Source: Escherichia phage vB_Ec-M-J. Taken from it: a DNA stretch of 64,000 nucleotides. Location of the stretch: the sequence record OQ718158.1. One strand, given 5' to 3'. Every line of letters starts with the position of its first letter. Within the stretch, counting starts at the first letter, position 1. Under the pieces are notes generated by a model. It did no database searches. It saw only the letters and a program-made list of their open reading frames with translations, and was not told where the DNA came from. A program made the position numbers and the translations under genes. This document shows positions 1 through 28,044 of this stretch, one piece after another.

Positions 1-70
1 AGTAGGCAGAGGAAGTCTGCCGTACTTTGTAGTTTCCAAGCTCCTTTTCCATTTTGCAAATTACATCAAA

Positions 71-98
71 TGTAATCAAAAGTAATCAAAAGTAATCA
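71..98. repeat. tandem ~10-bp direct repeat (A)AGTAATCA(A) x3
   Basis: tgtaatcaaa/agtaatcaaa/agtaatcacg read directly. Confidence 0.6.
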
Positions 99-375
99 CG
101 CAATGATTAGTACTGAATTATTACTTTCACCTTAATTTCAATTACCCCTTTACCCTTCGGGGTAAAATTCCATTACCCCTTGAGGCTCCAGCAAAAAGTT
201 GGTTAGTACTCCATCCTAAATCTCGATCCTAAAAATTTTGGAGTACCTATGAAATAAAAGTTGGATCTTCGAAATTTGAAATTTACGTTGGGACGTTTAT
301 GATTTGTGGGATATAATGATGTTTGTAGTCGGGTAGTTTTCAAGAATATCAGCACTGAATAATGAAAGAAAGCTA

Positions 376-403
376 TTGACATTATGATTCAGTACTGTAT
401 AAT
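376..403 (+). promoter_or_regulatory. sigma70-like promoter in left non-coding region
   Basis: TTGACA-16-TATAAT followed by GTTCTACATAGGG (same downstream box as early promoters). Confidence 0.5.
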
Positions 404-731
404 GTTCTACATAGGGTGATGAGTTGCTGCGAACAATTCATTTACTCTACCTCCTGTCGTGAGACAGTACAGAAAAGATAGTTCCTCCTGTGGTGGTACA
501 TCTTTTTGAACCTCATATGAAAATCGTAATAACAGTACTGATATTAACAGAATGGTGTCAGTACTGATTTTAATCTAAAGCATTATGCCACCAGCACAAG
601 CTGGTGGATTCCCTCTAACAGTATTCAGTACTACATGATGGTCTTCATCCTCCTAGGGTAACATAGTGAGGGCTATGATGGCAGTACTGAATACTCCCTT
701 TCAAAAGATAGATCTATGGTATAGTACTGAC

Positions 732-920
732 GGATTTTGGGCGTAGTTACCCTGGATGGATTTTGGACGTAGATATGTCTAGCCCTCCAGAAGTCTGGAA
801 GTAAAGATGGCTATCCATCTAGACGGCTAAACGGCTAGATTTCTGGATGGCTAGATGGCTAGACGTTTGGACGGCTAAACGGCTAGATGGTTACACGTCT
901 GGAAGTATAGACGGCTAAAT
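732..920. repeat. iteron-like cluster of short direct repeats
   Basis: GGATTTTGG(G/A)CGTAG x2; GTCTGGAAGTA x2; ACGGCTAAACGGCTAGAT x2; GGCTAGATGGCTAGACG. Confidence 0.6.
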
Positions 921-1355
921 CAAAATTTTATTTTGTTTTTCCAATAGTTCCCCTACCGCGTGGGGATAGTTTCCCCGCAGTATCTGGAGTTAGATTTTTC
1001 TGAATCTGGAATCATTATCTTATAAACTGGGGGCAATGTCAACGACCTGGACGGATATTTTTAAAAATTTTTTCAGTACTGAATTTTGGGCGTAACTATG
1101 CACCCGGTGGGCTTGAGTCTTTCTCGACTTGATGGAACTATTATACAGTACTGAAAAAATAAAGCAATACCCTGGAAGCAAAAAAGTTTTAATTAATTTG
1201 CTTGCTATCCTGGGCCGGACTATGGTACTATATTTCAGTACTGAGAAAGTGCGTTTACCTGCTAGGGTGCGGGAGTGTATCCTTTTTTTATATCTTGAAT
1301 TTTGGGCGTAATTCCGCACCCTCTGGGGTTTCCGCTTTCTCGCGTCTATGTAGTA

Positions 1356-1383
1356 ATTATACGCTTTTTCAGGATCAAGTCAA
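1356..1383 (-). promoter_or_regulatory. candidate leftward promoter
   Basis: minus strand TTGACT-16-TATAAT; transcribes toward a GCACCC..GGG box. Confidence 0.35.
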
Positions 1384-1676
1384 TACCTAAAAACAAAATA
1401 ATTGAAAATAATTTAACGCGTTTAAACGGCCCGTAAAGCCCTGGAATGATTGGAATGGTGCAAATGTATAGCTTAGGTGTATTAATGCGTTAGAATGCGT
1501 CTGAGGCCGTTTTACGGGGTATAGGGATGATTTGGTGGATTGATTCAGTACTGAATGATAGTACTACTATATAGAAAGATAGTTCCCCTGGATGGTTGCA
1601 GTACTGAATGATAGTACTGAATAATAGTTCCCCTATATAGAAAGAAAACTATTTTAAAAGTATTTGTAGAAAGTAC

Positions 1677-1734
1677 TTGCAAACTAAGTTTAACGGCGTA
1701 TAATGTTTTACATCGAGAGCGGGAACACTTCCCG
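1677..1734 (+). promoter_or_regulatory. early promoter + 5' stem-loop
   Basis: AAAGTACTTGCAA-16-TATAAT-GTTTTACATC then hairpin GCGGGAAcacTTCCCGC. Confidence 0.65.
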
Positions 1735-1759
1735 CTACATATTACGAGAGATTAAAACG

Positions 1760-2122
1760 ATGGCGACTCAAATCACTAAAATTATTGCTAACCTGGTTAA
1801 CTTTCGCGACGAGATGAAAGATCTTCCGGCAGAAACGGTAAAAATTCACATTTCAGCTTATCGGGAACTTATTGCAATGTTACCGCTTAAGCGTGAACAA
1901 TACGCCGCGACCGTGATGCTTGATGCGATGATCCATAAGATGATCGCCAGTGATTTAACGATGGTTTATCAGTATATGGGCGAAAATTTCGCGGTGTATA
2001 GTAAACCAGTACCAGGAATGGAAAGTACAGAAGTATTACACGGTTTAAATTTAAAACAAGATGCATGGGATAATATGCCTCGTTTCCTGGTATGGGCTGA
2101 CAGTGGCAAGATTTACGAATAA
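1760..2122 (+). CDS. hypothetical early protein (120 aa)
   Basis: ORF in track frame; start moved to ATG after RBS GAGAG; track start 1703 lies in promoter -10. Confidence 0.65.
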   Translation: MATQITKIIANLVNFRDEMKDLPAETVKIHISAYRELIAMLPLKREQYAATVMLDAMIHKMIASDLTMVYQYMGENFAVYSKPVPGMESTEVLHGLNLKQDAWDNMPRFLVWADSGKIYE

Positions 2123-2136
2123 GTTTTAAAAAGTAC

Positions 2137-2196
2137 TTGCAAACTAAGTTTAAAAGCGTATAATGTTTTACATCAGGTGGGGAATAGTTCCCCACT
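2137..2196 (+). promoter_or_regulatory. early promoter + 5' stem-loop
   Basis: TTGCAA-16-TATAAT-GTTTTACATC; hairpin GTGGGGAAtagTTCCCCAC. Confidence 0.65.
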
Positions 2197-2216
2197 ATAA
2201 TTAAGAGATTAATTTC

Positions 2217-2450
2217 ATGAGTACTATTTTAACTGTTTCTCAATCCGTTGCACTGACTGACCTATTAAACGCTTTAAGCCGTTGCACTGAGGTTGGCTTG
2301 TTTGATGTGGTAGACGTTGCACCGGACGTTATTAATCATTTTTGTGATGCGATGGAAGAATGTAAGGAAGATGATAGCCGTATGATGGCGGTCGCCTTTG
2401 AGGAAGTACAACCAGGTGAGATCAAAGGTTTACCAGTACTGAAAAAATAG
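2217..2450 (+). CDS. hypothetical early protein (77 aa)
   Basis: track ORF; own promoter and RBS. Confidence 0.65.
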   Translation: MSTILTVSQSVALTDLLNALSRCTEVGLFDVVDVAPDVINHFCDAMEECKEDDSRMMAVAFEEVQPGEIKGLPVLKK

Positions 2451-2453
2451 TAC

Positions 2454-2512
2454 TTGCAAACTAAGTTTAAAAGCGTATAATACTTTCTATCAGGTGGGGA
2501 ATAGTTCCCCAC
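2454..2512 (+). promoter_or_regulatory. early promoter + 5' stem-loop
   Basis: TTGCAA-16-TATAAT; hairpin GGTGGGGAAtagTTCCCCACT. Confidence 0.65.
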
Positions 2513-2532
2513 TATATAAGAGGATTTAAAAA

Positions 2533-2772
2533 ATGGCTAAATCAAAAATGTTCTTAGGTCACAAAAACAAAACTCATTGGAATGTAAGCCTTTGGATTAA
2601 TAACGATGAGTCATTGTACCGGTTGGCCCAGGACTTTATTAACGATAGCACTAATCGCAATGATGCGGCCCGTCATATGATGTTATTTTTAGAACAGACT
2701 GGACAAGATAAAACACCGGACGGATTCAAATATAGCACTACTGCGATCCGTGCGGCGATGGTTGGAATGTAA
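2533..2772 (+). CDS. hypothetical early protein; paralog of 4636..4875
   Basis: track ORF; shares HKNKTHWNVSLWINN...TPDGFKYSTTAIRAAMVGM with 4636 gene. Confidence 0.7.
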   Translation: MAKSKMFLGHKNKTHWNVSLWINNDESLYRLAQDFINDSTNRNDAARHMMLFLEQTGQDKTPDGFKYSTTAIRAAMVGM

Positions 2773-2798
2773 TAGAATAGAATTTATTTAAAGTACTA

Positions 2799-2823
2799 TT
2801 GCACGGGGATAGTACTTTATAAT
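2799..2823 (+). promoter_or_regulatory. degenerate promoter (short spacer)
   Basis: TTGCAC-13-TATAAT; the homologous element at 15302 has an intact 17-bp spacer. Confidence 0.3.
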
Positions 2824-2860
2824 AGTGTTTTATTCATACACCAACGATAAGGGCAACAGC

Positions 2861-3127
2861 ATGAATATTAAGTATTTTGCGACGCGTGAACAAGCTCGGA
2901 TCGCCGCACGGCAGGACGGGGCAACGTTTAAAGATATGGGCGTACAATCGGAACGTGGTAAACGTTGGGCCATTGTAAAGCGTAGTACCGCCAGATCATT
3001 ACAGTACTGGTTAGCGGCCTTAAAAAGTCCCGATAGTGTATCGCGTCGAGTGGTAGAAATAAAGCTCGACCGAAAGGGCAACCGCGTGACTGTGTACCGT
3101 ACTAAAAAGATTGCAGTACTTGAATAA
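2861..3127 (+). CDS. hypothetical early protein; paralog of 15375..15770
   Basis: start moved to ATG after RBS AAGGG; shares KYFATREQARIAAR...RKGNRVTVY with 15375 gene. Confidence 0.6.
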   Translation: MNIKYFATREQARIAARQDGATFKDMGVQSERGKRWAIVKRSTARSLQYWLAALKSPDSVSRRVVEIKLDRKGNRVTVYRTKKIAVLE

Positions 3128-3134
3128 AAAGTAC

Positions 3135-3193
3135 TTGCAAACTATGTTTAATGGCGTATAATGTTTTACATCGAGAGCGGGAACACTTCCCGC
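3135..3193 (+). promoter_or_regulatory. early promoter + 5' stem-loop
   Basis: TTGCAA-16-TATAAT-GTTTTACATC; hairpin GCGGGAAcacTTCCCGC. Confidence 0.65.
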
Positions 3194-3214
3194 CTATAAC
3201 CTGGAGTAATAAAA

Positions 3215-3445
3215 ATGACTAATATGTATATGACTGAAGTTAAAACCGTAAAAGATACTACCACGAATAAAACTACTTACTTACAGCGGATCTGCGGTGT
3301 ATGGCAACGTATCAGCAAATCAAAGTACTTTAAATTAACATCATATGCAAACCGTTCGGATTCATTCAGTACTGAAATAAAAGGTAATAAAGTACACCAA
3401 TACGGCACTTATTATTATTATAGCCTGGACGCGATTGCAGTCTAA
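3215..3445 (+). CDS. hypothetical early protein (76 aa)
   Basis: track ORF; promoter + RBS GGAG. Confidence 0.6.
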   Translation: MTNMYMTEVKTVKDTTTNKTTYLQRICGVWQRISKSKYFKLTSYANRSDSFSTEIKGNKVHQYGTYYYYSLDAIAV

Positions 3446-3475
3446 GCAGTTTACAAATCTTTACAATTGCCGGTA

Positions 3476-3504
3476 TTGACTTATTTTGTCAGTACTGGCA
3501 TAAT
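3476..3504 (+). promoter_or_regulatory. sigma70-like promoter upstream of conserved box
   Basis: TTGACT-17-CATAAT. Confidence 0.5.
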
Positions 3505-3536
3505 GTATTCATTGGCAGATAAGCCGTAGCCCATAG

Positions 3537-3565
3537 GGTGCGGGAGTGTATCTATAGAAAAATTA
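3537..3565 (+). promoter_or_regulatory. conserved ~29-bp box (TAGCCCAyAGGGTGC..GTGTATCTAT)
   Basis: one of about 10 copies in the window, always 25-50 bp downstream of a promoter. Confidence 0.5.
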
Positions 3566-3567
3566 GT

Positions 3568-3600
3568 TTAGTACAGTTACAATTGTGCACCCGGTGGGTT
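3568..3600 (-). promoter_or_regulatory. inverted copy of conserved box
   Basis: reverse complement of GTGCACCCGGTGGGTTAGC matches the box. Confidence 0.45.
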
Positions 3601-3619
3601 AGCTGTTGTCATGGGGTAT

Positions 3620-3648
3620 ATTATGCCAGTACTTGATAATGCTGTCAA
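3620..3648 (-). promoter_or_regulatory. leftward promoter convergent with 3476 promoter
   Basis: minus strand TTGACA-17-CATAAT. Confidence 0.45.
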
Positions 3649-3693
3649 TACTTTTTTAATATTCAGTACTGAAAACTATTTTTAAAAAGTACT

Positions 3694-3720
3694 TGCAAAC
3701 TATGTTTAAAGGCGTATAAT
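3694..3720 (+). promoter_or_regulatory. early promoter (no immediate hairpin; long leader)
   Basis: TTGCAA-15-TATAAT-GTTTTACATC. Confidence 0.6.
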
Positions 3721-3810
3721 GTTTTACATCAGGACGGGGAACGAAATAAGTAACTTCCCGTTAAGTAGCCCAGGAGTAAGGCACACGAAAAACTCCCCTG
3801 ATAAAATAGT
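3721..3810 (+). promoter_or_regulatory. structured ~90-nt leader, duplicated at 14175..14262
   Basis: CAGGACGGGGAACGAAA.AAGTAAC..CCCGTTAAGTAG.CCAGGAGTAAG...AAAAACTCCCCTGATAAAATAG nearly identical in both copies. Confidence 0.5.
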
Positions 3811-3838
3811 TTGACAATTGTTTTTAAAAGCGTATAAT
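3811..3838 (+). promoter_or_regulatory. second (tandem) promoter before 3871 gene
   Basis: TTGACA-16-TATAAT. Confidence 0.5.
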
Positions 3839-3870
3839 ACTTACATCAACTACTGAATGAGGGTTACAAA

Positions 3871-4545
3871 ATGAAAACTATCACTACTACTACTTTCGTT
3901 ATGGATTTTTCTGAATTGAATGAGGGTTGCAAAGCGAAAACTGTCACTAATACTACTTTCGTTATGGATTTTTCTGAATTGAACGCAGAACAAAAAACGT
4001 CAGCTATCGAACTGGTTCGGGAACGTGAAAAAAACTTAAACGATGATTATTTTTCTGAAAGTGAAATTGAATACTATAAAGAAACAGTACTACCGGAATA
4101 TGGCATTAATGACGCTGAAATACAATTCAGTGGTTTTTGGTCCCAGGGTGACGGTGCATCAATCAGTACTGACCACGTTGACGCAGTGAAGTTTTTACGC
4201 AAGGTAAGAGCATTAACTAAATATCGCTCAATCCGTCACTTGCTGAATGAAGATGATTTGGCGATGAGTGTAAAGCGTTCTCACTCCCACTACTCGCATG
4301 AGAATACTGTAAGCGGGTACATTGAATCGGCTTACACTGATTTAACCGCAAAACAAGAAACGTTAGTTAATGAGCTTGAGGAACTACTCACTGAAACTAT
4401 TCGTGAATTATCCCGCAAGTTGTACCGTGATTTAGAGAATGCATATGAGGATCAATTCACTACTGAAAACATTACGGCACTGATTGAGGGTAACGAATAT
4501 CAATTCAATGTTATTAATGGCGTAGTAGAATCAATCGAATATTAA
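3871..4545 (+). CDS. hypothetical protein (224 aa) with N-terminal tandem duplication
   Basis: track ORF; TTTFVMDFSELN(E/A) repeated twice near N-terminus. Confidence 0.7.
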   Translation: MKTITTTTFVMDFSELNEGCKAKTVTNTTFVMDFSELNAEQKTSAIELVREREKNLNDDYFSESEIEYYKETVLPEYGINDAEIQFSGFWSQGDGASISTDHVDAVKFLRKVRALTKYRSIRHLLNEDDLAMSVKRSHSHYSHENTVSGYIESAYTDLTAKQETLVNELEELLTETIRELSRKLYRDLENAYEDQFTTENITALIEGNEYQFNVINGVVESIEY

Positions 4546-4557
4546 TTTAAAAAGTAC

Positions 4558-4619
4558 TTGCAAACTAAGTTTAAAGGCGTATAATACTTTATATCGAGGC
4601 GGGGAGTGGTTCCCCGCTC
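4558..4619 (+). promoter_or_regulatory. early promoter + 5' stem-loop
   Basis: TTGCAA-16-TATAAT; hairpin GAGGCGGGGAgtggTTCCCCGCTC. Confidence 0.65.
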
Positions 4620-4635
4620 AAACGAGGATTAAAAA

Positions 4636-4875
4636 ATGGCTAGTACTAAAACTTACAACGGGCACAAAAACAAAACTCATTGGAATGTTTCCTTATGGAT
4701 TAATAACGGTGAGTCATTGTATCGGCTTGCTCAAAGTTGCATCGCACAAAGTAGAACTAAAGATATTGCTGCGGAATGTATGTACCGCAGATTAAAAGCC
4801 AACGGTACTACTACAACGCCGGACGGATTCAAGTATAGCACTACGGCGATCCGTGCTGCAATGGTTGGAATGTAA
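4636..4875 (+). CDS. hypothetical early protein; paralog of 2533..2772
   Basis: track ORF; conserved N- and C-terminal blocks with 2533 gene. Confidence 0.7.
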   Translation: MASTKTYNGHKNKTHWNVSLWINNGESLYRLAQSCIAQSRTKDIAAECMYRRLKANGTTTTPDGFKYSTTAIRAAMVGM

Positions 4876-4895
4876 TATTCAGTACTGTAACAATG

Positions 4896-4920
4896 GCGGG
4901 GAATGGTTCCCGCCTTTATT
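4896..4920 (+). terminator. hairpin + T-rich tail (terminator or 5' stabiliser)
   Basis: GGCGGGGAAtggTTCCCGCC then TTTATT. Confidence 0.45.
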
Positions 4921-4933
4921 GAGGGTTTATCTA

Positions 4934-5194
4934 ATGAGTAAAGTAATTAGCTATACAGTACTAAGCAAGTCATTATCTATTAGCCAGTGCACCGATGGTT
5001 ATTGGCTATTTGATGAAACGCGTGGAATGAATTTAGCTATGCGTGCAAAAACTGCTGAGGCGGCGTATCTTGAGGCACTGGAATACTACCAGGAACGTTT
5101 AACGGAAGTAGAAGAAGATTATAAAAGCCTCAAAGCGAAAGTAGATCATTTCGTCGGTCAATTCATCGAGGAAGACGACGACAAACAATATTGA
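4934..5194 (+). CDS. hypothetical early protein (86 aa)
   Basis: start moved to ATG after RBS GAGGG; track start 4853 runs through the hairpin. Confidence 0.55.
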   Translation: MSKVISYTVLSKSLSISQCTDGYWLFDETRGMNLAMRAKTAEAAYLEALEYYQERLTEVEEDYKSLKAKVDHFVGQFIEEDDDKQY

Positions 5195-5203
5195 AAAAGT
5201 ACT

Positions 5204-5261
5204 TGCAATTAGTTTTAAGTACTGTATAATGGTTTACATCAAAGGGAGAAATGGTTCTCCC
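5204..5261 (+). promoter_or_regulatory. early promoter + 5' stem-loop
   Basis: TTGCAA-15-TATAAT; hairpin GGGAGAAatggTTCTCCC. Confidence 0.65.
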
Positions 5262-5280
5262 TGGTAATGAGGAAAATAAA

Positions 5281-5502
5281 ATGGCTAATATCACTACTCT
5301 TTCCCAACTGGAAGCACTGGTTAAATCTATGCGGGAACATGCCGACAAAATCGGCGTACAAGATCCAGCCGTTTGCTTCTGCGACGAATTGAATGATGAT
5401 ACCCTGGTAATAGCAGAAGTCCAGGACGTTTCTAACTATTCCTCGCGTTACACTGGCGGCGTAGCAAATAAAGGTGACTTCTGTTTATACCTTACAAAAT
5501 AA
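5281..5502 (+). CDS. hypothetical early protein (73 aa)
   Basis: start moved to ATG after RBS GAGG; track start 5251 lies in hairpin. Confidence 0.6.
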   Translation: MANITTLSQLEALVKSMREHADKIGVQDPAVCFCDELNDDTLVIAEVQDVSNYSSRYTGGVANKGDFCLYLTK

Positions 5503-5505
5503 CAA

Positions 5506-5537
5506 CGCGGGGAGATAATAACTCCCCGTTACTTTTT
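5506..5537 (+). terminator. rho-independent terminator candidate
   Basis: CGGGGAGataataaCTCCCCG then TTACTTTTT. Confidence 0.5.
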
Positions 5538-5608
5538 CAGTACTGAATCATTTAATAGACGGATCTCGGCACCCGGTGGGTTAGTGACTGTTTCGTCTTG
5601 ATGTAGTA

Positions 5609-5637
5609 ATTATGCCAGTACTGGATGCACTTGTCAA
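5609..5637 (-). promoter_or_regulatory. leftward promoter reading into inverted box copy
   Basis: minus strand TTGACA-17-CATAAT; GCACCCGGTGGGTTAG downstream. Confidence 0.4.
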
Positions 5638-5670
5638 CAATTATTTTTCAAATACTTTTTATTAAAATAC

Positions 5671-5725
5671 TTGCAATTAGTTTTTAAACGCGTATAATGT
5701 TTTGCATAGGGGGAGCGGTTCCCCT
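5671..5725 (+). promoter_or_regulatory. early promoter + 5' stem-loop
   Basis: TTGCAA-16-TATAAT; hairpin GGGGGAGcggTTCCCC. Confidence 0.6.
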
Positions 5726-5745
5726 GGTAACTAAGGAATAAGAAA

Positions 5746-5982
5746 ATGGTCGAACAAATCAAATCAACGTCTTCGAATGTAACGGGAACGGTAGCACACT
5801 TTACTAGTGATGAATCGCGGGGCGTTCCCTATTGTGCTGTACATGTAAACACTGAGGGTAACTACTGGTTTACGGTTTACGGATCATATTCATTTGGACG
5901 GCCAGGGCATCAAAAAATTCTGGATAAAGTACAACCAACGGGTAAAAATATCACTGCCGAAATGTTTTATAAAAAATCATAA
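5746..5982 (+). CDS. hypothetical early protein (78 aa)
   Basis: track ORF; RBS AAGGAA. Confidence 0.6.
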   Translation: MVEQIKSTSSNVTGTVAHFTSDESRGVPYCAVHVNTEGNYWFTVYGSYSFGRPGHQKILDKVQPTGKNITAEMFYKKS

Positions 5983-5987
5983 AGTAC

Positions 5988-6046
5988 TTGCAATTAGTTT
6001 TTAGTACTGTATAATATTTTACATCGCAAGGGGGAGCGGTTCCCCC
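5988..6046 (+). promoter_or_regulatory. early promoter + 5' stem-loop
   Basis: TTGCAA-16-TATAAT; hairpin GGGGGAGcggTTCCCCC. Confidence 0.6.
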
Positions 6047-6066
6047 TGGTAACTAAGGATAATCAA

Positions 6067-6366
6067 ATGAAAATTGCAATCATCGCCCTGGCTTTATCTG
6101 TTTCCTCTTTCGCTGTTAATGCGTCATTAGATGTAAGTAGTGAAAAATTCATTCAGTGCACTGTTGCAATGACCGATGAAAGAACTGGCGAGATTGTATT
6201 AAAGGATTTAGAGATCCAGCCGGAAGCATTTAAAAACGGGCCGTTCCATGAAGAAGACGAAAAAGGTAGCACGACAATTTATTACGATGCCAGTACTAAA
6301 CGCGGTTCGGTCACTGTAATGGATACTGAGAAAGTAACTCATACTGGCGTTATTAATTGCCGTTGA
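6067..6366 (+). CDS. secreted/periplasmic small protein (signal peptide)
   Basis: N-terminus MKIAIIALALSVSSFAVNA-S looks like a Sec signal peptide. Confidence 0.65.
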   Translation: MKIAIIALALSVSSFAVNASLDVSSEKFIQCTVAMTDERTGEIVLKDLEIQPEAFKNGPFHEEDEKGSTTIYYDASTKRGSVTVMDTEKVTHTGVINCR

Positions 6367-6387
6367 TAGATACTACGGGGTAACATC

Positions 6388-6618
6388 ATGACTAAGCGAA
6401 TTGTTTTACTTAACGAAAGCAGTACTACACAACTACTTAACGCCGTGCATTATGATATTGAAACGAGCGTTAATCTTATCAGTACTGTCGTACTGTTGGA
6501 CACTGGAAAGGTCGCCAATGATAAAGCGATTGCAGGTATATTAACGGATCTTGAGCCTGGTAGCAGTGCACCCATAACGTTAAATGGTAAAGTGTTTAAT
6601 ATTTTACTCACTGATTAA
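6388..6618 (+). CDS. hypothetical protein (76 aa)
   Basis: track ORF directly after 6067 gene; RBS GGGG. Confidence 0.55.
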   Translation: MTKRIVLLNESSTTQLLNAVHYDIETSVNLISTVVLLDTGKVANDKAIAGILTDLEPGSSAPITLNGKVFNILLTD

Positions 6619-6624
6619 GTACAT

Positions 6625-6650
6625 AGCCCACCTGGTGGGCTTTTTTTGTT
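6625..6650 (+). terminator. rho-independent terminator
   Basis: AGCCCACctgGTGGGCT then TTTTTTTG. Confidence 0.7.
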
Positions 6651-6701
6651 TTTGTAGTATCGTAGTACTGAGATACTTTGAAAATAGTTTTAAAAAAGTA
6701 G

Positions 6702-6729
6702 TTGACATTACCGCAGAAAAGCGTAGAAT
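6702..6729 (+). promoter_or_regulatory. sigma70-like promoter with long leader
   Basis: TTGACA-16-TAGAAT. Confidence 0.5.
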
Positions 6730-6852
6730 GTATTACATCAAGACGGGGAGCACTAAGTAGACCGCCAGTAAGTCGAACGAAAAACTGGACACGTCGAGAA
6801 AACTTTGATACACTAATAAACGTAAACTAAACTTTAATTGAGGATTTATAAA

Positions 6853-7335
6853 ATGGCTAATGTAAAATCATTCATCAAAGCACTGGTAGCAAATGAAACT
6901 AACGTCGCGGCTGAGATCCTGGCTGAACTGGATAACGATACCATGAAAGCGGTACGCAATAATTTTAACATCGCGTACAGTACTGCGAAAGAACTACAAG
7001 CAAATAAAGCGGCAGAAATTGAAGCGGCAAAGGCTGCCCGTGAAGCAGAACTACAAGCAACAATCGAAAGTATTCAGGCGGCAGTAGTTGGATTGGATCT
7101 GGAAGTAGTTACAGAGATGGCACAAAAAGCCCTGGCGGTTAAGTATGGGGAAGACAAGCCAGAAGTAAAAGCCAAAAAATGGATTCAGGAACGCGTAGCG
7201 GTAGTACTGGATAATGGGGAAGAATATCTGATTCCGGTGCGTGGTAACTGTATTGCGGTAGTACTGGACGCGATTAACGCCAGCGGTATGACTCGCGAGG
7301 AATGGATCGAATCTCATCGCAAAGTTGAAGCATAA
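6853..7335 (+). CDS. hypothetical protein, Ala/Glu/Lys-rich helical N-terminus (160 aa)
   Basis: track ORF; start moved from TTG to ATG after RBS GAGG. Confidence 0.65.
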   Translation: MANVKSFIKALVANETNVAAEILAELDNDTMKAVRNNFNIAYSTAKELQANKAAEIEAAKAAREAELQATIESIQAAVVGLDLEVVTEMAQKALAVKYGEDKPEVKAKKWIQERVAVVLDNGEEYLIPVRGNCIAVVLDAINASGMTREEWIESHRKVEA

Positions 7336-7356
7336 CAATTAAAGTACTGAATCACT

Positions 7357-7386
7357 AGCCCACTGTATAAGTGGGCTTTTTTGTGT
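7357..7386 (+). terminator. rho-independent terminator
   Basis: AGCCCACtgtataaGTGGGCT then TTTTTTG. Confidence 0.7.
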
Positions 7387-7393
7387 TTATCGT

Positions 7394-7500
7394 TTACCAG
7401 GCCACCAGCACCGCCTAGAAACGATTCTAACGTATTAAACTGTTTATCTGATGCATTGCCCTAGCTGGTGGCGTGAAGGTCGTTAGAATGCGATTGAGAG
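7394..7500. repeat. long imperfect inverted repeat
   Basis: CCACCAGC..GCTGGTGG and CGATTCTAACG..CGTTAGAATGCG arms; CGTTAGAATGCG also at ~1486 and ~11794. Confidence 0.45.
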
Positions 7501-7536
7501 CGTTTAAAGTATTTTGCAAAAAGTAATAAAAAGTAC

Positions 7537-7597
7537 TTGCACGATTAAGAGATTAGCGTATAATGTTTTACATCGAGAGGGGGAAACGGTTCTCCTT
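7537..7597 (+). promoter_or_regulatory. early promoter + 5' stem-loop
   Basis: TTGCAC-16-TATAAT-GTTTTACATC; hairpin GGGGGAAacggTTCTCC. Confidence 0.6.
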
Positions 7598-7619
7598 CCA
7601 AATCAAAGGAATCAAAACA

Positions 7620-7847
7620 ATGGCTATCGTAATCACTCGCGTAACTGGTACTACTGGCAATTCTTCTACTGTTGCTGTAATTACTAATAAGAAAGGTGCG
7701 GAATTGCATTTTGCAATGGATAAATGGGCCGTTAATGAGTTCGGTCAGTGGGCAAGTGTAGCATACATTGAAACCTATCAAGTGCCGTCGATTAGTTTAA
7801 CTGATTTGGGCGTTGAGCGTATCCTTTGCCTTGATGAATTAAATTAA
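7620..7847 (+). CDS. hypothetical early protein (75 aa)
   Basis: start moved to ATG after RBS AAGGA; track start 7563 lies in promoter. Confidence 0.65.
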   Translation: MAIVITRVTGTTGNSSTVAVITNKKGAELHFAMDKWAVNEFGQWASVAYIETYQVPSISLTDLGVERILCLDELN

Positions 7848-7853
7848 AAAAGT

Positions 7854-7914
7854 ACTTGCAAAGTAAATCGAATAAAGTATAATACATTACATCAAGGGGA
7901 GAAATGGTTCTCCC
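7854..7914 (+). promoter_or_regulatory. early promoter + 5' stem-loop
   Basis: TTGCAA-18-TATAAT; hairpin GGGGAGAAatggTTCTCCCC. Confidence 0.6.
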
Positions 7915-7932
7915 CACTACAAGGAAACTAAA

Positions 7933-8076
7933 ATGAAAACTTGTCAATGTGGTCAGAAATCTATTACGGGTTTAAAGCGGGGCGTTGCTCTTTGCCAGTA
8001 CCATTATAATTTACAAGTATGGGGTAAAGAATGGGCCGACCAGGTGGAAGCAGCAAAGAAAGCAAAAAGTAAGTAA
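7933..8076 (+). CDS. small Cys/His-containing protein (47 aa), not in ORF track
   Basis: ATG after RBS AAGGAA; CQCG...LCQYH could bind metal. Confidence 0.5.
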   Translation: MKTCQCGQKSITGLKRGVALCQYHYNLQVWGKEWADQVEAAKKAKSK

Positions 8077-8094
8077 AATATTATCACAGTACTA

Positions 8095-8123
8095 TTGACA
8101 TAGTTTGATAGTACTGGCATAAT
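8095..8123 (+). promoter_or_regulatory. class-B early promoter
   Basis: ATTATCACAGTACTATTGACA-17-CATAAT; same cassette at 8389, 11231, 11502, 19423. Confidence 0.6.
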
Positions 8124-8156
8124 AGATTTTATCAAGACAACTAAGAGGAAACAATA

Positions 8157-8369
8157 ATGGCTATCATCACAAAAATCAAAGTTAACAAATCACTGGTTAA
8201 ACTTGAACAAGTGAAAGCAGGTTATAAAGTATCGTGGTGCGGTATGTATCGGATGTTCACCGATATAGACAATGCAATCAAGTACTACACTGACACCGTT
8301 GCCTCATTCGTTCGTGCTGATGTGGTTATGGCAGTGGCAACGCACAAAGCAGCGAAAGAAAGTAAGTAA
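8157..8369 (+). CDS. hypothetical early protein (70 aa)
   Basis: track ORF; RBS AAGAGGAAA. Confidence 0.65.
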   Translation: MAIITKIKVNKSLVKLEQVKAGYKVSWCGMYRMFTDIDNAIKYYTDTVASFVRADVVMAVATHKAAKESK

Positions 8370-8388
8370 AAATATTATCACAGTACTA

Positions 8389-8417
8389 TTGACATAGTTT
8401 GATAGTACTGGCATAAT
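8389..8417 (+). promoter_or_regulatory. class-B early promoter
   Basis: TTGACA-17-CATAAT, near-identical to 8095 copy. Confidence 0.6.
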
Positions 8418-8458
8418 AGATTTTATCAAGACAACATATTAATTTAAGGAATACAAAA

Positions 8459-8782
8459 ATGGCTAAAACTATCATTAACACCGTTTCCCTGGCTGCAATC
8501 CGTGCAATCAATGTTGACGGTAAACGTTGGACTGATTCATATGGCAATACTTATCATTCTTGTCATGTAAGCGTTGAACTGGATAACGGTTTGAATGATC
8601 TGGCGGTTGAATCATTTACTTATGGCTATGAAGATGCATATCAACAAACGGCGTTATCTCTCTTAAAGGAATCAGTAGACGGGCTTAATACTGATGAAAC
8701 CTCCCTTACTCGTGTGTGCAATGATCTTAATATCCCGTTGCATTGTACTGTACAGAATGTTAAACGCAAAAAAGATCTTTAA
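8459..8782 (+). CDS. hypothetical early protein; paralog of 14956..15279
   Basis: track ORF; shares RWTDS(Y/H)GNTYHSC.VS...FTYGY...KRKKD with 14956 gene. Confidence 0.7.
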   Translation: MAKTIINTVSLAAIRAINVDGKRWTDSYGNTYHSCHVSVELDNGLNDLAVESFTYGYEDAYQQTALSLLKESVDGLNTDETSLTRVCNDLNIPLHCTVQNVKRKKDL

Positions 8783-8861
8783 TTAGCTTTACTTTATGCA
8801 GATACTTTGATATAGTGTCTGCATAGGGGAAAGAAATTAAACTACTTAAGAGGATCGTATA

Positions 8862-9131
8862 ATGAAAAATATCAGTACTTTAATCGATGCAGGTACTCAT
8901 GTTCGTCGGTCTATGGTTGCAACCAGTACTACAAAACAAGTAGCGAGCGGTTATCTTGTATTTGTGCACGATGGTAAACTCCTGGAACGTTCAATCAATT
9001 TTGATGTTAAAAACAATTGCCGTTTTATTATCTTTAAGCGTGAGCAATATAAAATTGATTTACCAGCAAAGCCCATTAGTGGGGCGTACAACGTGCAATC
9101 ATTGTTTGAACGTCAACCATACACCTATTAA
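8862..9131 (+). CDS. hypothetical protein (89 aa)
   Basis: track ORF; RBS AAGAGGA. Confidence 0.55.
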   Translation: MKNISTLIDAGTHVRRSMVATSTTKQVASGYLVFVHDGKLLERSINFDVKNNCRFIIFKREQYKIDLPAKPISGAYNVQSLFERQPYTY

Positions 9132-27108: not shown

Positions 27109-27360
27109 ATGAAAGTACTGAGTGAATTAGAAATGCATAATAGATTATACAAGTACTACCATTTACTTAAACCTATACAGAGGATTAAGTGTCCCTTTGA
27201 AGTGAAACAGGTTTTGATTTATGAGCATAAGTTCTTTGTATCATTAGGTACTAATCATCAAGAGTACTTTTTGAAGTTGTACTTGATTACATTAATAGAT
27301 TTAATTCACTATAAAACCACACAATCTAAACAAGCTAATAAAGAGAAATATGAAAACTAA
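27109..27360 (+). CDS. F1 paralog
   Basis: ATG 1 nt after upstream stop (track 27076); LGTNHQEYFLKLYL. Confidence 0.5.
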   Translation: MKVLSELEMHNRLYKYYHLLKPIQRIKCPFEVKQVLIYEHKFFVSLGTNHQEYFLKLYLITLIDLIHYKTTQSKQANKEKYEN

Positions 27361-27688
27361 TATAAAACTCAAGGTATATAAATCATTTGCAAGTACATAC
27401 ATCAAATGCCATACATGTAACTCTGTAATGGACTACAAAGGTAAGCCATTTGCACTTACTTACGATAATACAAGAGGTTTTTATATATCTTTTGCTGATT
27501 ACAAATATAACATATACGAACACATTGACATTGAAGATTTAAGTACTTTATCTGAAGAGGAATACTTTCAAGAATCATTAGTATGGGATTTGGAGTTTCC
27601 TATGTCATTGGTACATAAGATGATAGTACTAATAAAAGAAACTAAGCCTGTACCTAATGGTTATGAAGATCACATTATTGAGTATTAA
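27350..27688 (+). CDS. F2 paralog (EExxFQ-S motif protein)
   Basis: track ORF; SEEEYFQESL; N-terminal C-x-x-C. Confidence 0.6.
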   Translation: MKTNIKLKVYKSFASTYIKCHTCNSVMDYKGKPFALTYDNTRGFYISFADYKYNIYEHIDIEDLSTLSEEEYFQESLVWDLEFPMSLVHKMIVLIKETKPVPNGYEDHIIEY

Positions 27689-27702
27689 TATATAAGGTAA
27701 CT

Positions 27703-28044
27703 ATGAAAACTAATATACAACTCAATGTATACAGTTCAGAAGAACATACATATATCAAATGCAGTCTATGTAAAGATGTAATGGACTACAAAGGTAAGCC
27801 ATTCACAATTACCTATGATTCTGATGTTAATGATTTATATATATCATTTCTTAATTACGAAAATAAAATATACAAGCACGTTGATATTAAAGATTTAAGT
27901 ACTTTATCAGCAGAGGAATACTTTCAGGAATCATTAGTATGGGATTTAGAGTTTCCTATGCCATTAGTACATAAGATGGTAGTACTAATGAAAGAAGCTA
28001 AACCAGAGTTTAACGGTTATGAAGAACACACAATTGAGTATTAA
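27703..28044 (+). CDS. F2 paralog
   Basis: track ORF; SAEEYFQESL; close paralog of 27350 gene. Confidence 0.6.
   Translation: MKTNIQLNVYSSEEHTYIKCSLCKDVMDYKGKPFTITYDSDVNDLYISFLNYENKIYKHVDIKDLSTLSAEEYFQESLVWDLEFPMPLVHKMVVLMKEAKPEFNGYEEHTIEY

Follow-up and report, generated by a model that had tools for sequence, protein, structure and literature searches.

Tandem duplications and deletions that arise between short direct repeats by slipped-strand mispairing are classic in lacI and in phage T4 rII. The locus described here, at the 5′-end of a putative early gene of an Escherichia phage, resembles these events in being a head-to-tail duplication with a unit bounded by a short direct repeat, here the tetranucleotide TGAA, but differs from them in that the unit spans the ribosome-binding site and the start codon and is in frame, the 5′-UTR was turned into coding sequence, and the second start was later lost. 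The kind of duplication is familiar, and the curious feature is the cluster of changes that followed it, including loss of the internal start.

The nearest described counterparts of the gene are the single-copy orthologues in other Asteriusvirus phages, i.e. PBECO4 (AGC34954.1), 121Q (gp271, AIT14161.1) and G17 (G17_00049, QBO61545.1), in which the locus, the two promoters, the Shine-Dalgarno (SD) sequence and the start are all as in the DNA analysed here. This DNA, referred to as the window, is a stretch of 64 kb from Escherichia phage vB_Ec-M-J, which has a genome of 378,573 bp. The phage is listed as Asteriusvirus, and its direct terminal repeat is 21,525 bp long (PMC13070987). Over 1.3 kb, the locus was 97–98% identical to the Asteriusvirus jumbo phages PBECO4, G17, SP27, BF17, fEgEco12 and others, and 86% identical to phage 121Q; nucleotide similarity across the locus thus placed the source phage within Asteriusvirus.

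The gene encodes a protein of 224 aa with the N-terminus MKTITTTTFVMDFSELNEGCKAKTVTNTTFVMDFSELNAEQKT, and this exact protein was recorded for one phage only, vB_Ec-M-J, under two locus tags, as expected because the gene lies inside the 21.5-kb terminal repeat. Its description in an earlier note as the largest early protein holds in a mechanical sense within positions 1–9000, where the next ORF is of 165 aa. Coordinates of the features at the locus are collected in the table.

Features at the duplicated locus, with positions in the 64-kb window.
Feature	Position	Strand	Description
Convergent promoter, TTGACT-17-CATAAT	3476–3504	+	faces the minus-strand promoter across ~110 nt
Convergent promoter, TTGACA-17-CATAAT	3648–3620	-	faces the plus-strand promoter across ~110 nt
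Promoter P1, TTGCAA-16-TATAAT	3693–3720	+	conserved in all relatives
GC-rich hairpin, P1 leader	3733–3762	+	fold z-score -1.8, not significant alone
Promoter P2 (proximal), TTGACA-16-TATAAT	3811–3838	+	perfect consensus (12/12); direct repeat of P1
Repeat copy 1	3854–3916	+	SD GAGGG 3859–3863, ATG 3871–3873, codons 1–15 and base 1 of codon 16
CDS, phrog_5162 member	3871–4545	+	224 aa; EcMJ_006 / EcMJ_602 of phage vB_Ec-M-J
Repeat copy 2	3917–3979	+	linker tail, residues 22–36 and base 1 of codon 37
Copy-2 substitutions	3929 A>G; 3934–3935 AT>GC; 3943 A>G; 3950 C>A	+	relative to copy 1
TGAA microhomology, 4 nt	3980–3983	+	repeats the first four bases of the unit; marks the duplication junction

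The protein had been noted to begin with a unit of about 20 residues repeated twice. On careful translation its N-terminus read exactly as written there, and by direct comparison residues 1–17 and 22–38 were identical at 14 of 17 positions, a match far beyond chance. The duplication itself thus stood, and the period was revised to 21 residues, consisting of a 17-residue block and a four-residue linker, EGCK. On the DNA level, Tandem Repeats Finder reported a repeat at 3854–3983 with a period of 63 bp, 2.1 copies, 92% matches and a score of 225, which was the highest tandem repeat score in the window with the exception of one gene-sized tandem of 356 bp. The two copies were identical at 58 of 63 positions, copy 1 having the sequence that most relatives carry once; a few relatives depart from it at one or two bases.

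As the unit begins 17 nt upstream of the ATG, the duplication took in the translation-start region beyond coding sequence alone. In copy 1 the spacer between SD and ATG is 7 nt. In copy 2 the former SD (3922–3926) now provides codons for Glu-Gly, and the former ATG has become GCG, encoding Ala22 (3934–3936). Since 63 is divisible by three and no in-frame stop occurs in the former 5′-UTR, translation from the first ATG reads through copy 2; the linker EGCK is the translated former 5′-UTR (former SD and spacer), and with the second MKTITTTTFVMDFSELN-like block the product becomes 21 residues longer. Reading of the downstream sequence revealed no in-frame start preceded by an SD: M11 and M32 have none, and the TTG that follows the second GAGGG lies in another frame. 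With GCG in place of the start codon in copy 2, initiation of the native 203-aa form is lost, and it would appear that only the 224-aa long form can be made.

The annotated orthologues in the retrieved relatives were 612 bp (203 aa) long. Asteriusvirus single-copy orthologues were 96% identical to the window protein over 203 aa and belonged with it to a common 90% cluster, but they were without the 63-bp duplication, and the change of ATG to GCG at the original start position was found in the window allele only. In a multiple alignment with 11 relatives the duplication stood out as a clean 63-bp insertion confined to the window sequence, only 118 bp of a 181-bp query across the repeat were covered in all 34 related phage records, and the close homologues returned from a search of 5.8 billion proteins were all of 196–205 aa. 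The 21-mer spanning the junction was found neither in viral and genome contig collections nor in complete E. coli genomes, and its single metagenome match was an unrelated plant contig. By these sequence comparisons, the duplication appears to be a small, strain-specific event confined to vB_Ec-M-J. The dN/dS ratio against phage 121Q was 0.12–0.17, which indicates that the gene is under purifying selection and functional within the genus.

The best explanation, and one that we regard as very probable, is that 63 bp around the translation start of a conserved Asteriusvirus early gene were duplicated in tandem and in frame, in a lineage-specific event. Without the duplication, the sequence has TGAAT just upstream of the SD, its TGAA 17 nt before the ATG, and TGAAC at codons 16–17, 63 nt away. 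The junction falls exactly at TGAA, which points to a slipped-strand or microhomology-mediated origin, and the unit would have been duplicated by slipped-strand mispairing or illegitimate recombination between the two tetranucleotides. A longer junction microhomology of 6 nt, CTGAAT, was rejected, as comparison in register gives TGAA (4 nt).

Copies that differ at five positions, and a period that is an exact multiple of three and leaves the frame open, speak against a sequencing or assembly artefact, in which case the phage DNA would have no duplication. Restriction of the duplication to one record would agree with such an error, and a probable artefact in phage BAU.Micro_ELP-22, with a duplication of 77 bp, shows that errors of this type happen in Asteriusvirus relatives; yet 63 is no standard assembler k-mer size, copy 2 has no start codon and so does not represent a co-assembled variant allele of one site, and a single private difference in the surrounding 833 aligned columns argues for a clean consensus. 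An artefact is accordingly considered very unlikely.

The ELP-22 duplication (L005, OR699282.2, positions 1276–1429) is a perfect tandem copy within the orthologous gene, where it breaks the frame, with two CDSs annotated in place of one. As the copy is perfect, its length of 77 bp coincides with a standard assembler k-mer and the junction homology is only 1 nt, the duplication in this public record was probably introduced during assembly. On the same three observations, an independent hot-spot event at the ATTTTTCTGAA repeat was rejected for ELP-22.

The five substitutions that distinguish copy 2 from copy 1 fell within 22 nt, and all were nonsynonymous in comparison to an unmutated duplicate (Y>C, M>A, I>V and T>N), the M>A replacement needing two adjacent base changes. 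At the private substitution rate of the window, i.e. the one substitution in 833 columns outside the duplication, five or more changes in 63 nt have a Poisson P of ~2e-8, whereas with the pairwise dS to the closest relatives (0.024–0.04) as a generous, upper-bound neutral rate, P is 0.02–0.11. The clustering, five changes in 22 nt against one in 833, exceeds what a simple recent neutral duplication predicts. In the single-copy orthologues, the head M-K/N-T-I-T-T-T-T is invariant down to ~83% identity, and even 121Q has almost the same bases from the -10 box to codon 10, which suggests that the translation-initiation region is under nucleotide-level constraint, from which copy 2 would have escaped. 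Three explanations remain for the changes in copy 2: relaxed constraint, selection (for loss of the internal start, or for a repeat less prone to deletion), or a donor outside the sequences sampled. Neither the rest of the 64-kb window, searched with up to three mismatches, nor the N-termini of the homologues contained a donor of the copy-2 variant.

Selection after duplication would have driven the changes in copy 2 by removing the internal start, with the consequence that only the extended protein is produced, and by altering the internalised MKTITTT head or lowering repeat identity against loss by recombination; the phage might in this way evade a host factor by which the native N-terminus is recognised or inhibited. 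The restriction of five nonsynonymous differences to 22 nt of copy 2, with none in copy 1, would fit such adaptive remodelling, as would the P of 2e-8 at the private rate and the placement of I4V and T7N at positions otherwise fixed in the single-copy orthologues. We nevertheless consider it unlikely, since P is only 0.02–0.11 at the upper-bound rate, five nonsynonymous changes out of five would be expected by chance with a probability of roughly 0.2, the private rate is made unreliable by the mosaic recombination of these phages, and the interacting host factor is hypothetical. It is quite improbable that the duplication became fixed because selection favoured a remodelled N-terminus in an early protein of the counter-defence type, the extended form of which escapes or newly engages a host factor; if true, this would be a conversion of 5′-UTR to coding sequence caught in the act, and a driver of phage-host adaptation within a large family of uncharacterised proteins. 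On the preferred reading as a lineage-specific duplication, the locus offers a clean natural case in which duplication of a start region turns a ribosome-binding site into coding sequence and the redundant start is then lost.

Two promoters had been proposed upstream of the gene, together with a duplicated structured leader. Both promoters were recovered as tandem sigma70-like promoters, which form a 28-nt direct repeat with 79% identity and are 118 nt apart. The double-promoter arrangement was conserved base-for-base in 11 of the 11 aligned relatives, none of which has the duplication, and the two promoters are therefore a feature of the genus and locus that is unrelated to the duplicated allele. 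The leader turned out differently: the GC hairpin belongs to the P1 leader only, and the leader of P2, immediately in front of the gene, showed no significant structure (fold z-scores -0.5 to -1.8). A regulatory RNA was rejected, as P2-leader folds with one or two copies were no better than those of shuffled sequences (z-scores -0.5 to -0.9). The Rfam search of positions 1–22000 returned nothing.

After the P1 hairpin there is an SD-like GGAG (~3773–3776) with no ORF behind it. An ORF of 31 aa (3719–3814), annotated in some relatives, starts inside the -10 box. Judged from its sequence, the 3719–3814 stretch looks like a decayed gene cassette that is now the second, upstream promoter.

Upstream of P1, positions 3473–3507 and 3617–3651 form a 35-nt inverted repeat (74% complementary) comprising two convergent sigma70-like promoters with extended -10 boxes. 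Neither a convincing ORF nor an Rfam match was found in this region (3473–3651), in which phage 121Q annotates the 61-aa gp270. The convergent promoters could specify a sense/antisense pair of small RNAs.

The gene is part of a run of small co-directional genes inside the terminal repeat, and almost every small gene is preceded by a near-identical 33-nt promoter cassette (AGTACTTGCAAACTA.GTTTAA.GGCGTATAAT) with a GC hairpin and an SD. At least 11 early-gene promoters of the form TTGCAA-16-TATAAT, P1 among them, were counted in 1500–9000, six of them fitting the full 33-nt cassette pattern; these six are located in 1672–4585, and further TTGCAA-16-TATAAT sites continue to ~7883. The density of strong sigma70-type promoters and the placement of the run inside the terminal repeat suggest early expression of the gene, driven by host RNA polymerase. 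The repeated cassettes would also be ample substrate for recombination and for cassette gain and loss. Two paralogous genes of 79 aa flank the locus (2533–2772 and 4636–4875), with 67% identity and an identical C-terminal TPDGFKYSTTAIRAAMVGM.

The AlphaFold model of the 224-aa form (pLDDT 92.9) places strands at residues 2–11 and 22–33, and the corresponding model of the 203-aa PBECO4 orthologue (pLDDT 94.8) has its first strand at residues 8–12 (TFVMD) with residues 1–7 in coil. Between the two models, the later elements are unchanged, the equivalent strand is lengthened to 22–33, and copy 1 forms the second strand at 2–11. The extension is thus predicted to add a β-hairpin to the N-terminal edge, pairing with the native N-terminal strand and leaving the core undisturbed, where residues 1–21 of the hairpin are a single-sequence prediction of moderate confidence with no alignment depth (pLDDT 72–84). 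The predicted fold of the window protein matched the BFVD model of a homologue from phage vb_EcoM_bov22_2 with TM-scores of 0.81/0.88.

N-terminal extensions, unrelated to the present one, occur naturally in a minority of the family (~6% of the top 150 family representatives), so that an extended N-terminus is not at odds with the fold. Most likely, the extension is tolerated or mildly modulatory and confers no new function. It might also impair the 224-aa protein, and the gene might be dispensable in culture. The allele suggests more generally that the N-terminal edge of the family tolerates an added hairpin.

The protein matched phrog_5162 over its full length (E-value 2.4e-80, 269.8 bits), residues 25–219 aligning to profile positions 3–198 of 201. 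A profile of 65 members collected 10,309 cluster representatives (50% identity) with E-value ≤1e-3, and nearly all of them were stand-alone proteins of 185–240 aa with the domain starting from residue 1. In the window protein the profile match begins at residue 22–25, owing to the duplicated block, and this late start is a variation in architecture and no argument against homology with phrog_5162. From the family with the GFWSQGDGA and HYSHEN motifs, the window member differs by its self-derived N-terminal extension of 21 residues.

In the 65-sequence alignment, including the window protein, G88, F89, Q92, G93, D94, G95, Y141, H143 and Y185 were invariant, and W61, S87, S91, A96, E144, L188, E199 and N208 nearly so (window numbering); the conserved motifs are SGFWSQGDGAS (residues 87–97) and HYSHEN (residues 140–145). 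This pattern suggests a binding or catalytic pocket, and Q92, D94, Y141, H143, E144 and Y185 may form a conserved polar pocket through which the protein would act.

Searches with the window protein yielded only sub-threshold Pfam hits (HVO_A0114 and DUF7247) and no match in NCBIfam or PADLOC, Pfam returned no significant match across all 65 family members, and the profile search of PDB sequences produced no solved-structure match (best E-value 0.33). The concept of polyvalent-protein-associated domains, attributed to Iyer et al. 2017, reportedly concerns domains inside giant multidomain proteins of mobile elements. Among the best 150 family representatives the only fusion was P0177, a metagenomic protein of 1479 aa with an N-terminal Fic/DOC domain and the family domain at 778–960.

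Distant homologues in other large phages were located in arrays of small unannotated ORFs, and homologues on alphaproteobacterial plasmids adjoined genes for ssb, DUF932, RadC, an orphan methyltransferase and a strawberry-notch-like helicase. The plasmid homologue is a true family member (hhalign probability 99.9%, E-value 4e-37). Anti-defence islands have been described in the leading regions of plasmids (PMC11541004), and the plasmid neighbourhoods resemble these islands, with placement judged from the neighbouring genes. Like the early-entry genes ArdA, KlcA and Ocr (PMC11541004), the gene codes for a small acidic protein, has its own strong promoter and lies in the first-entering or terminal-repeat region; unlike them, its product resembled no characterised anti-defence or anti-restriction protein in sequence, fold or PADLOC searches. 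By analogy of context, the product is most likely an early host-takeover or counter-defence protein.

The alphaproteobacterial plasmid homologues are named 'antitoxin of toxin-antitoxin stability system' in RefSeq, and they are true family members, from which it might be supposed that the phage protein is an antitoxin whose stability was altered by the duplication. This is extremely doubtful. No Pfam or NCBIfam antitoxin model matched the window protein or the plasmid homologues tested, no toxin-like partner accompanies the window gene, which is monocistronic and has promoters of its own, and its neighbours, including the next gene (4636–4875), are small ORFs with their own promoter cassettes. 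The MbcA and RES genes next to the homologue at one plasmid locus already make up a full toxin-antitoxin system by themselves, and the invariant polar residues would suit a binding or catalytic pocket better than a labile antitoxin. The plasmid neighbours varied between loci, and no conserved toxin partner was recognised. Two plasmid members, L006 and L007 (positions 6001–6645 in both), bear the antitoxin label and matched no antitoxin model; the label looks like an inherited misannotation. The literature search on this label and on Asteriusvirus early promoters found nothing relevant.

The wider phrog_5162 family (~10,300 clusters at 50% identity in phages and plasmids, with a confidently predicted fold and no solved relative) is the more promising experimental target. 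Its invariant polar residues and its occurrence in first-expressed regions of mobile elements make it a reasonable candidate for anti-defence or host-takeover screening, for which the natural pair of 203-aa and 224-aa alleles is a ready-made comparison.

Two further repeats were observed in the window. The gene-sized tandem at 27349–28044 consists of two 356-bp copies with 80% identity and resembles tandem small paralogous genes. Near the left end of the window (809–917), an 8-nt CTAGACGG-like unit is repeated ~12 times and was scored with periods of 24 nt and 32 nt as well; this array may be connected with the genome terminus or with packaging.
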